Assembly: GCF_053078305.1 (NCBI RefSeq)
Contig: NZ_CP166879.1
Reading direction: 5' to 3' (one strand)
Length of the DNA stretch: 64,000 nt
Position numbers: made by a program. The stretch's first letter is position 1. The number at the start of each line of letters is the position of its first letter. This document shows, piece by piece, positions 1-6,000 of the stretch.

Positions 1-3000
1 TAAATCTCCCCGCCGCCGATAAACCGAGCCGTTATTTGTTAACCGTCTCCGCCAGTGACGGCGCGGCGTATCGCGTCACCACCACCAAAGAGATCCTCAT
101 TGAACGCGGCCTGGCGCATTACTCTTTAAGTACCGCCGCACAATACAGTAATAGCGGCGAGTCGGTTGTGTTCCGTTATGCCGCGCTGGAATCTTCAAAA
201 CAGGTTCCTGTTACGTATGAATGGTTGCGTCTCGAAGACCGCACGAGCCATAGCGGAGAGCTACCGTCTGGCGGCAAATCCTTTACCGTCAATTTCGATA
301 AACCTGGCAACTACAATCTGACGTTACGCGATAAAGACGGCTTAATTCTCGCCGGGTTAAGCCATGCAGTCAGCGGTAAGGGCAGCATGTCGCATACTGG
401 TACGGTAGATATCGTGGCAGATAAAACGCTGTACCAGCCTGGCGAAACCGCGAAGATGCTGATTACCTTCCCGGAGCCAATTGATGAAGCATTATTGACG
501 CTGGAACGCGATCGCGTGGAACAGCAGTCGCTGCTTTCGCATCCGGCAAACTGGCTAACGCTACAACGTTTAAACGATACCCAGTATGAAGCCCGGGTTC
601 CAGTGAGCAATTCCTTTGCGCCTAACATCACTTTTTCGGTGCTGTATACCCGTAACGGTCAGTACAGTTTTCAGAACGCCGGGATCAAAGTTGCCGTTCC
701 CCAGCTGGATATCCGGGTGAAAACGGACAAAACTCATTACCAGCCTGGTGAACTGGTCAATGTCGAATTAACTTCGTCGCTGAAAGGTAAACCTGTTTCT
801 GCGCAGCTAACGGTAGGCGTGGTCGATGAAATGATTTACGCGCTGCAACCAGAAATCGCGCCGAATATCGGCAAATTTTTCTATCCGCTGGGGCGTAACA
901 ATGTGCGTACCAGCTCCAGTCTGTCGTTTATCAGCTACGACCAGGCGCTCTCCAGCGAGCCGGTTGCGCCTGGCGCAACTAACCGCAGCGAGCGGCGAGT
1001 AAAAATGCTTGAACGTCCACGGCGTGAAGAGGTGGATACCGCGGCATGGATGCCGTCACTCACAACCGATAAACAAGGCAAAGCGTATTTCACGTTCCTG
1101 ATGCCTGATTCGTTAACCCGCTGGCGTATCACCGCGCGTGGGATGAACGGCGACGGGCTGGTCGGGCAGGGGCGTGCTTATCTGCGTTCGGAAAAAAATC
1201 TCTACATGAAGTGGAGTATGCCAACGGTGTATCGCGTGGGCGACAAACCGGCGGCAGGACTGTTTATCTTCAGTCAGCAGGATAACGAACCGGTGGCGCT
1301 GGTGACTAAATTTGCAGGCGCTGAGATGCGCCAGACGCTGACGCTGCACAAAGGGGCGAATTATATTTCGCTGGCGCAGAACATTCAGCAATCTGGCTTG
1401 TTAAGCGCAGAACTGCAACAAAATGGGCAAGTGCAGGACAGCATTAGCACAAAACTGTCTTTTGTGGATAACAGCTGGCCCGTTGAACAGCAGAAAAATG
1501 TCATGCTCGGCGGTGGCGATAACGCGCTGATGTTGCCCGAGCAGGCGAGCAATATCCGGCTACAAAGTAGTGAAACGCCGCAGGAGATTTTCCGTAACAA
1601 TCTTGATGCGTTAGTCGATGAACCGTGGGGTGGCGTGATCAACACCGGTAGCCGTCTGATCCCGCTCAGTCTCGCCTGGCGTTCGCTTGCCGATCATCAA
1701 AGTGCCGCCGCTAACGACATTCGTCAGATGATTCAGGATAACCGTCTGCGGCTGATGCAACTGGCGGGGCCCGGAGCGCGCTTTACCTGGTGGGGTGAAG
1801 ATGGCAATGGTGACGCCTTCCTTACGGCATGGGCATGGTACGCCGACTGGCAGGCCAGCCAGGCGCTCGGCGTAACGCAACAACCGGAATACTGGCAGCA
1901 TATGCTCGACAGTTATGCCGAGCAGGCAGATAACATGCCGTTATTGCATCGGGCGCTGGTGCTGGCGTGGGCACAGGAGATGAATCTGCCGTGCAAAACG
2001 TTGTTGAAAGGGTTGGATGAAGCTATCGCCCGGCGCGGAACTAAAACTGAAGATTTCTCTGAGGAAGACACCCGCGATATCAATGACAGCCTGATCCTCG
2101 ATACACCGGAATCTCCACTGGCAGATGCGGTGGCAAACGTCTTAACCATGACGTTGCTGAAAAAAGCGCAGTTGAAGTCCACGGTGATGCCACAGGTTCA
2201 GCAATATGCGTGGGATAAAGCGGCAAACAGCAATCAGCCGCTGGCGCACACGGTAGTGCTGCTCAATAGCGGGGGCGACGCTACCCAGGCGGCTGCTATT
2301 TTAAGTGGTTTGACCGCTGAGCAATCCACTATTGAGCGCGCGCTGGCCATGAACTGGCTGGCGAAATATATGGCGACAATGCCTTCGGTTGTGTTGCCTG
2401 CGCCTGCGGGCACATGGGCCAAACATAAGTTAACTGGAGGGGGCGAATACTGGCGTTGGGTTGGTCAGGGCGTGCCGGACATTCTCTCTTTTGGTGACGA
2501 ATTATCGCCGCAAAATGTGCAGGTCCGCTGGCGTGAAGCGGCAAAAACGGCTCAACAAAGTAACATTCCGGTGACCGTTGAACGCCAGTTGTATCGGCTT
2601 ATCCCCGGTGAAGAAGAGATGAGCTTTACTCTGCAGCCGGTGACCAGCAATGAGATTGACAGCGATGCGCTGTATCTCGATGAAATTACGCTTACCAGCG
2701 AGCAGGATGCAGTTCTGCGCTATGGTCAGGTGGAAGTACCGCTCCCGCCGGGAGCCGACGTTGAGCGCACAACATGGGGCATTTCAGTCAATAAACCCAA
2801 CGCCGCGAAACAGCAGGGGCAATTGCTGGAAAAAGCGCGTAATGAAATGGGCGAACTGGCCTATATGGTGCCGGTGAAAGAACTGACGGGAACGGTCACT
2901 TTCCGCCATTTGCTGCGCTTCTCGCAAAAAGGGCAATTCGTTCTGCCTCCTGCTCGTTATGTGCGTTCCTATGCACCTGCGCAGCAAAGTGTTGCGGCAG

Positions 3001-6000
3001 GGAGCGAATGGACCGGGATGCAGGTGAAATAAGTGAACTGGCGCAGAATCGTCTGGCTATTGGCGTTGGTTACTCTGCCAACGCTTGCGGAGGAGACGCC
3101 GTTACAACTGGTGCTGCGCGGTGCGCAGCACGATCAACTGTATCAGCTGTCGTCATCAGGCGTGACCAAAGTCTCAGCATTACCTGACTCGCTCACCACG
3201 CCGTTAGGGAGTTTGTGGAAACTGTATGTTTACGCCTGGCTGGAGGATACCCATCAACCGGAGCAGCCCTACCAGTGTCGCGGAAACTCCCCGGAAGAGG
3301 TTTATTGTTGTCAGGCTGGGGAGAGCATAACGCGCGATACCGCGCTGGTACGTTCCTGTGGGCTCTATTTTGCGCCGCAGCGGTTGCATATTGGCGCAGA
3401 TGTGTGGGGGCAATACTGGCAACAGCGTCAGGCACCTGCGTGGTTAGCGTCTCTTACTACGCTGAAGCCAGAAACCTCGGTAACGGTTAAATCGCTGCTT
3501 GATTCATTAGCGACGTTACCTGCGCAAAACACAGCTCAGGAAGTCTTACTGGAAGTGGTGCTGGACGAGGCGAAAATCGGTGTCGCATCCATGCTCGGTA
3601 GTCGGGTACGGGTGAAAACCTGGAGCTGGTTTGCCGATGATAAACAGGAAATCCGTCAGGGTGGTTTTGCTGGCTGGTTAACCGATGGTACACCGCTGTG
3701 GGTTACTGGCAGTGGCACCAGCAAAACGGTACTGACCCGTTATGCGACGGTGCTTAATCGGGTTTTGCCAGTGCCGACGCAAGTTGCCAGTGGGCAATGT
3801 GTAAAGGTGGAGCTGTTTGCCCGCTATCCGCTGAAGAAAATCACAGCGGAAAAGAGTACGACGGCAGTAAAACCCGGCGTACTTAATGGGCGCTATCGTG
3901 TGACGTTTACTAATGGTAACCACATTACGTTTGTCAGCCACGGTGAGACGACCTTACTGAGCGAAAAGGGCAAACTGAAATTGCAGTCGCATCTTGATCG
4001 TGAAGAGTACGTTGCCAGAGTTCTGGATCGCGAGGCGAAAAGTACGCCCCCTGAGGCAGCGAAAGCCATGACCGTGGCGATTCGCACTTTTTTACAGCAA
4101 AACGCCAATCGGGAAGGCGATTGCCTGACCATCCCTGACAGCAGCGCCACGCAGCGTGTTTCTGCTTCGCCAGCTACCACGGGGGCGCGAACGATGACCG
4201 CCTGGACGCAGGATCTCATCTATGCGGGCGATCCGGTTCATTATCACGGCAGTCGCGCTACCGAAGGGACGCTTTCCTGGCGGCAAGCCACGGCCCAGGC
4301 GGGACGGGGAGAGCGTTACGACCAGATACTCGCGTTTGCTTATCCCGACAACAGCCTTAGCCGCTGGGGAGCGCCACGCTCAACCTGTCAGTTATTACCC
4401 AAAGCGAAAGCCTGGCTGGCGAAAAAAATGCCGCAGTGGCGGCGTATATTACAAGGCGAGACGGGGTACAACGAACCAGACGTGTTTGCGGTCTGTCGTT
4501 TAGTCTCAGGTTTCCCCTATACCGATCGGCAGCAGAAACGGCTGTTTATTCGTAACTTCTTTACGCTTCAGGATCGGCTGGATTTAACCCATGAGTATCT
4601 GCACCTGGCCTTTGATGGTTATCCCACCGGGCTTGATGAGAACTATATCGAAACGCTGACCCGACAATTATTAATGGACTAATGCTATGCGAAAGATTTT
4701 TCTTCCGTTGTTACTGGTGGCGCTTTCGCCTGTCGCTCACAGTGAAGGTGTGCAGGAAGTCGAGATTGACGCACCGCTCTCAGGCTGGCATCCGGCAGAG
4801 GGCGAAGATGCCAGTTTTTCACAATCGATCAATTACCCGGCGTCGTCCGTCAACATGGCAGATGATCAAAATATCTCAGCGCAGATCCGCGGAAAAATAA
4901 AGAATTATGCTGCGGCGGGTAAAGTTCAGCAGGGCCGGCTGGTGGTCAACGGTGCCAGTATGCCGCAGAGAATTGAATCCGATGGTTCATTTGCACGCCC
5001 TTATATTTTCACTGAAGGCAGCAACAGCGTGCAGGTCATCAGCCCGGATGGGCAAAGCCGACAAAAAATGCAGTTTTACTCAACGCCGGGTACAGGAACG
5101 ATTCGTGCACGTTTACGGCTGGTTCTCTCGTGGGATACGGACAATACCGATCTCGATCTCCATGTTGTCACGCCCGATGGAGAACACGCCTGGTACGGTA
5201 ACACCGTGCTGAAAAACAGTGGTGCACTGGATATGGATGTCACGACGGGGTATGGACCCGAGATTTTCGCCATGCCAGCGCCAGTTCACGGACGCTATCA
5301 GGTGTATATCAACTACTATGGCGGACGCAGCGAAACGGAATTAACCACCGCCCAACTGACGCTGATCACCGATGAAGGATCGGTCAATGAGAAACAGGAA
5401 ACATTTATTGTACCGATGCGTAATGCTGGCGAGCTGACGCTGGTGAAAAGTTTTGACTGGTGATCCATCCCTTCACACAACCTGGCTCTTTCTTTTTTCA
5501 GATAAGACTGCTGGGCGATCTGCCGACGCCAGGATATAACCATTAACAAGCGTCGGCAGATTGGTCATTTCTTATTTTTCGTACTGAGAACTGTCCATTT
5601 ACTCCGGCTTTCCTGGTTAAGGCAATGGTTTCTAAGCGATACGCATTATTGCAATGGTGACAGAACATTGCGGTAACACGCTTTTACCGCTACCTTAACC
5701 ACACTCCATCGGTCACCTGAGGCGGAGCTTCGCCCCTTTGAAATACCTTGCTTCTTTTCGTACAACCCTGAAAGCCTCGCGCTACATGTTCAGAGCATTG
5801 GCGTTAGTGCTCTGGCTGTTGATTGCTTTTTCATCCGTTTTTTACATCGTTAATGCGTTACATCAGCGAGAATCGGAAATTCGTCAGGAATTTAATCTGA
5901 GTTCCGATCAGGCTCAGCGCTTTATTCAACGCACCTCTGATGTGATGAAAGAGCTGAAGTACATCGCCGAAAATCGCTTATCGGCAGAAAACGGTGTGCT

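Follow-up and report, generated by a model that had tools for sequence, protein, structure and literature searches.

A yfaP-rcsC junction without ato genes in Escherichia coli: one of two discrete alleles, very probably derived by loss of atoSC-atoDAEB and marked by a diverged atoS remnant

The Ato system, composed of the AtoSC two-component system and the atoDAEB operon, is responsible for the use of acetoacetate and short-chain fatty acids. In Escherichia coli K-12 MG1655, the genes are arranged in the order rcsC, atoS, atoC, atoD, atoA, atoE, atoB, yfaP, yfaQ, and yfaS (b2218-b2225 for the rcsC-atoSC-atoDAEB-yfaP interval). In the stretch of DNA analyzed here (64,000 nucleotides of contig NZ_CP166879.1, assembly GCF_053078305.1; hereafter, the window), yfaP and rcsC are adjacent and co-directional, and no ato gene lies between them. 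How did this junction arise, and how widely is it shared? An earlier sequence-only reading had placed the end of yfaP at 5463 and the start of rcsC at 5738, and had noted the absence of the ato genes located between rcsC and yfaP in K-12. The open reading frames (ORFs), a blastn comparison with K-12, and a tblastn search confirm these points, and the MG1655 annotation agrees with the gene order assumed for K-12.

The spacer from the yfaP stop to the rcsC start is 274 bp long. Window 1-5464 aligns with K-12 at 98.2% identity without gaps, and window 5662-9440 at 99.1%. Between them, 7,413 bp of the K-12 locus (L001, 14954-22366) correspond to 197 bp of the window (5465-5661) in blastn. The six Ato proteins used as tblastn queries detected no ato gene across the 64 kb. 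No insertion sequence element, scar, or flanking direct repeat was found at the junction, where a hairpin is the only repeat, and the spacer has no match in Rfam.

The 197 bp can be divided into three parts. The 24 bp directly 3' of the yfaP stop (5465-5488), at the left breakpoint, bear at most a weak resemblance to atoS codons ~52-57. The following block (5489-5569, minus strand) corresponds to atoS codons ~24-50, matching atoS of K-12 and of 3,882 genomes at 78% over 68-69 nt by blastn (E = 3e-4 against 28 Gb). It translates to MTNLPTLVNGYILASADRPAVLSEK, for which the K-12 counterpart is MVIVPTLTIGYIVETEGRSAVLSEK, and 14 of 25 residues in frame are alike. A 1-nt frameshift follows the translated stretch, and the first ~20 atoS codons are missing. 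The third part (5570-5661, minus strand) is 52-58% identical to K-12 and carries internal deletions; it represents the atoS start region and the atoS-rcsC intergenic DNA, with the clearest block being GGTTAAGGCAATGGTTTCT at 5615-5633 against GGTTAAGGTGATGATTTCT in K-12. The remaining 76 bp of the spacer (5662-5737, plus strand), proximal to rcsC, are common to the ato-plus haplotype and are 100% identical to K-12. Judging from these alignments, 197 of the 274 bp are a decayed 5' end of atoS with its upstream DNA. The remnant has the features of an atoS pseudogene, since the similarity lies at the orthologous place and in the orthologous orientation and the coding capacity is lost. It is unannotated in most RefSeq genomes, though in one genome a hypothetical protein of 41 aa is predicted to span it. 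The sequence-only reading described the spacer as merely hairpin-containing; a hairpin with a perfect 12-bp repeat is indeed present, but it lies in a segment that is largely atoS remnant.

The presence of an atoS remnant in the spacer indicates that the ato-less state arose by loss and not by a gain of ato in K-12. Outgroups point in the same direction. In L098, a non-coli Escherichia with 91.8% identity to K-12, the locus runs collinear with K-12 through gyrA-yfaATSQP-atoBEADCS-rcsC, and the ato genes (90-96% identical to those of K-12) are no more diverged than the flanks (87-92%). A second one (L043, 90.4% identical to K-12) has atoS beside rcsC on a contig that ends inside atoS, and in four Citrobacter loci the ato genes, beginning with atoS, also adjoin rcsC. 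In the scan with RcsC as the query, L043 was the only Escherichia relative among the matches listed, which included no E. albertii, E. fergusonii, E. marmotae, or Salmonella. YfaP homologues of 84-92% identity proved to come from E. coli-like assemblies that are full of errors and carry ato. As read from gene order and divergence, the ato-plus arrangement is the ancestral state. The converse, in which the ato-less locus is ancestral and K-12 and similar strains gained ato by insertion, would account for the pattern of presence and absence itself, and ato is able to move, as it also occurs on the LAA (Locus of Adhesion and Autoaggregation) island (PMC5539235, PMC6174562). However, an insertion does not leave an atoS remnant in the ato-less spacer, nor does it explain ato at exactly the same position in non-coli Escherichia and Citrobacter with divergence matching that of the flanks. 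The outgroup positions and the remnant together rule out such a gain, to which we assign only a very small probability.

That the deletion is confined to this isolate, or was created by the assembly, is still harder to credit. Many independent complete genomes match the junction at 100% over 201 bp, and 10.85 kb of the window (1738-12587) is 100% identical to JPQG01000003.1 of assembly GCA_000736735.1.

Among 5,426 complete E. coli genomes, 1,539 fully cover a 2-kb query that spans the junction, and 1,536 cover at least 80% of a 201-bp query centered on the spacer. The K-12 rcsC-atoS junction was found in 3,873 genomes. The ato-less allele therefore accounts for ~28% and the K-12-like allele for 71% of the complete genomes. 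With the remnant alone as the query, the best match was 95-100% identical in 1,540 genomes, whereas in 3,882 genomes the sole match was that of 78% over 68 nt inside atoS. This bimodality is strict, with no intermediate between the remnant and atoS among the complete E. coli genomes, and nearly all genomes that have the remnant have it as a single copy. The absence of ato is thus one allele of a species-wide two-allele polymorphism, and not the strain-level indel that the sequence-only reading took it for.

Carriers of the ato-less junction include O157:H7, O55:H7, O145:H28, O111:H8, and an O26 strain, which we take to belong to phylogroups E and B1. Those of the K-12 junction include K-12 and BL21 derivatives, 042, JJ1886, and ATCC 25922, presumably of phylogroups A, D, and B2. 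The value for phylogenetic placement suggested earlier is therefore limited, as the allele occurs in both of the former phylogroups and its flanks recombine freely. The exact RcsC sequence of the window (949 aa) adjoins the remnant in three loci (L099, L100, and L102) but an intact atoS in another (L101), indicating that recombination has uncoupled rcsC from the ato allele. The allele is a coarse lineage marker only. Variable ato content in E. coli is already published: ato prevalence differs by >50% between phylogroups A and B1 (PMC9602453), and the LAA island at pheV carries atoSC-atoDAEB as a second, mobile copy (PMC5539235, PMC6174562). About 56 genomes have atoS without the K-12 junction, which is consistent with an ato copy on this island.

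Taken together, the ato-less haplotype very probably represents a derived loss of atoSC and atoDAEB that segregates as one of two discrete alleles in E. coli. The loss would have removed ~7.4 kb, from about atoS codon 55 through atoB and the bidirectional atoB/yfaP terminator, and would have left the 197-bp noncoding remnant of the atoS promoter and N-terminal codons. The remnant would be too diverged to recombine with atoS, while recombination would homogenize the flanks up to its edges. Recombination stopping there would account for the abrupt drops in identity at 5464/5465 and 5661/5662. Cells with this allele are predicted to be unable to induce or run Ato catabolism of acetoacetate and butyrate, or AtoSC signaling, unless ato is present elsewhere. 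Such a loss in this strain is in line with the published phylogroup differences in ato content (PMC9602453). The altered DNA upstream of rcsC may also affect Rcs expression.

The divergence of the remnant should be noted, since it weighs against the loss having been a plain deletion. Such a deletion predicts a remnant ~98% identical to K-12, and the observed identities of 52.5-72.8% require a further process. In the columns of a MAFFT alignment, block 5489-5569 is 72.8% identical between the window and K-12, as compared with 97.5% between K-12 and L043 and 85-90% between K-12 and Citrobacter. The corresponding values are 52.5%, 87.5%, and 52-57% for block 5570-5609, and 57.7%, 92.3%, and 75% for block 5610-5661. 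In block 5662-5737, beyond the remnant, they are 100%, 96.1%, and ~80%. The flanks are 96-100% identical to K-12 in 300-bp windows, reaching 100% over the 300 bp immediately to the right. Six functional atoS sequences agree at 109 columns, and the remnant departs from them at 32 of these. At the sites where K-12 equals L043 and Citrobacter differs, it is K-12-like at eight, Citrobacter-like at eight, and like neither at seven. Copies of the remnant across E. coli are 1-3% apart, which suggests that it is not evolving fast now.

We tentatively prefer an old or imported haplotype as the account of this divergence. An unsampled relative could have lost the ato genes long ago, with the remnant then decaying neutrally there; the allele would then have entered E. 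coli by homologous recombination, and the donor flanks would later have been replaced up to the edges of heterology. This sequence of events, which we hold with the same reserve, fits a remnant that is 27-48% diverged from K-12 atoS, beyond Citrobacter atoS in two of the three blocks and about equal to it in the 40-bp middle block. It also fits the changes at invariant columns, the lack of affiliation with either Escherichia or Citrobacter, and the closeness of the copies to each other beside flanks so similar to K-12. The step from 100% to ~60% identity at the edges of the 197 bp, combined with the two-allele structure in >5,400 genomes, may mark such a haplotype. On the other hand, no donor was found: a 27-mer of the remnant occurred in two metagenome contigs, both E. 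coli-like, and a search with the remnant peptide (41-aa ORF, strain PK5) matched only small ORFs of E. coli. Nor does yfaP show a diverged introgression tract next to the junction. A look-up of the exact RcsB sequence returned E. coli only. A stronger form of this account holds that the allele did not come from deleting the resident ato at all. It would instead be an ancient haplotype that introgressed from an enterobacterial "ghost" lineage, one that is unsampled, and that recombination then pared down to a core of 197 bp. We consider this form conceivable but doubtful; if true, decay of the remnant would have begun before the Escherichia species separated.

The rival account places the deletion within E. 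coli, starting from a K-12-like locus, and ascribes the scrambling of the remnant not to age but to the same complex event or to changes soon after it, whether through template switching at a quasi-palindrome, through repair that is error-prone, or through a brief period of selection. An imperfect hairpin is already present at this position in K-12 atoS, and every one of the changes clustered in the left arm adds complementarity to the right arm, the outcome that template-switch correction of a palindrome would produce. Several small deletions accompany the substitutions, and the divergence is strictly confined to the 197 bp. However, the substitutions extend across the whole 197 bp and not the hairpin arms alone. 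Neither 35 kb of K-12 nor the window yielded a source of a templated insertion, with matches only at chance level (≤13 nt), and a remnant formed independently in Citrobacter lacks such excess divergence. We regard a scrambling event within E. coli as somewhat less likely than an old or imported haplotype. A diverged full-length E. coli atoS was also considered as the source of the remnant and rejected, as all atoS 5' ends detected in complete E. coli genomes, wherever located, are at least 97.6% identical to K-12.

The hairpin is located within the remnant. A perfect 12-bp inverted repeat (5518-5529 and 5550-5561) with a 20-nt loop forms the core of a long stem-loop followed by UUUUUCG (5501-5576, plus strand; ΔG −34.7 kcal/mol, z −5.1). 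The equivalent segment of K-12 atoS has a ΔG of −19 and a z of −1.75. The canonical bidirectional atoB/yfaP terminator of K-12 is absent from the window. The deletion removed this terminator and turned a convergent gene pair into the co-directional yfaP-rcsC pair, making the hairpin an obvious candidate for stopping read-through into rcsC. The yfa operon now points directly at rcsC, and the hairpin with its U-rich tail is the only remaining candidate for this function. The stem of 12-13 bp is G+C-rich like that of a terminator, and the hairpin may serve as a replacement terminator for the yfa operon. Several observations weigh against this role. A simple terminator scan does not call the hairpin, which is attributable to its 20-nt loop. 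A short loop of 3-8 nt and an immediate U-tract are both lacking, with the U-run at 5574-5579 following only an A-U-rich extended stem base. No compensatory change or covariation was found in the hairpin among six alleles, and one strain has a change that breaks the stem.

The 3' two-thirds of yfaS, encoding an alpha-2-macroglobulin family protein, occupy 1-3032 (plus strand), in a frame open from the window edge with no in-frame stop from base 3; the assignment follows the RefSeq annotation of the homologous locus. The ORF list and the RefSeq annotation agree on yfaQ (549 aa, 3033-4682), yfaP (258 aa, PF09906, 4687-5463), and rcsC (949 aa, TTG start, 5738-8587), all on the plus strand. In the ORF list, rcsB lies on the minus strand (8787-9437). 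RefSeq annotates the same genes and the same rcsC start in a 99% identical genome, and the best complete RefSeq genome is 99.3% identical to window 1-9440. In K-12, yfaS is annotated as a pseudogene; since the part visible here has an open frame and matches K-12 without gaps, the K-12 defect must sit upstream of the window edge. In the rcsC-rcsB spacer, window 8569-8780 contains two copies of a ~98-bp repeat that are 88-93% alike. This spacer is 114 bp shorter in some E. coli loci (L092 and L094), indicating that the copy number of the repeat is variable.

Beyond rcsB, a lambdoid prophage of >54 kb (9430-64000) is integrated exactly at the rcsB start codon, with the attachment site at 9430-9440 and int at 9482-10771 on the minus strand. 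The shared core of the attachment site is probably TACATGAACAA, from a comparison of the window, K-12, and the rcsD side of DETEC-S792. The integration separates rcsB from rcsD and its native upstream DNA. The gene now lies 45 bp downstream of the co-directional int, and the phage end provides it with a new AGGTG ribosome-binding site. A closely related prophage is present in about 10 complete genomes (87-100% coverage of the int-to-immunity region at >98% identity); only for DETEC-S792, which is ato-plus, was its position at rcsB confirmed. A literature search for prophage integration at rcsD/rcsB found no relevant paper. The Q antiterminator gene is located at 22296-22745, upstream of the region where Shiga toxin (Stx) phages carry stx. 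That region here encodes a 966-aa N6-methyltransferase fusion (23276-26176), a 369-aa protein resembling type I specificity subunits (26251-27360), and a NanS-p-like esterase (28034-30055); no Stx-like ORF was found among the ORFs scanned downstream of Q (22296-30055). The late region shares 86-88% identity with Stx2a-converting phages and includes a single ORF of 2,807 aa (53943-62366), a giant ORF of the kind that we take to be present in short-tailed Stx-type phages.

Compared with known systems, the locus resembles K-12 MG1655 in the flanking genes, their orientation, 98-100% of the flank sequence, and the 76 bp upstream of rcsC. It differs in having the 197-bp remnant in place of 7,413 bp that include the DNA upstream of atoS, the six ato genes, and the atoB/yfaP terminator. 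The yfaP-rcsC junctions of O157:H7 and O55:H7 are 100% identical to that of the window over 201 bp, and the O111:H8-type allele is 99% identical. The LAA island at pheV of Shiga toxin-producing E. coli negative for the locus of enterocyte effacement shows that ato is both variable and mobile (PMC5539235, PMC6174562). Its ato copy lies outside the window, and an ato copy of this type is not the source of the remnant, given the ≥97.6% identity to K-12 of every detected E. coli atoS 5' end. Citrobacter youngae ATCC 29220 (L005, 2119-6511) has lost ato beside rcsC independently and likewise keeps a remnant of about the first 50 codons of atoS. Other DNA of ~4.3 kb stands in the place of ato, and AtoS residues 9-50 are kept. 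The C. youngae remnant is 86-89% identical to related atoS genes, as compared with 86-94% in rcsC, and shows no excess divergence. The retention of approximately the first 50 atoS codons in both independent losses may reflect a constraint on the DNA upstream of rcsC.

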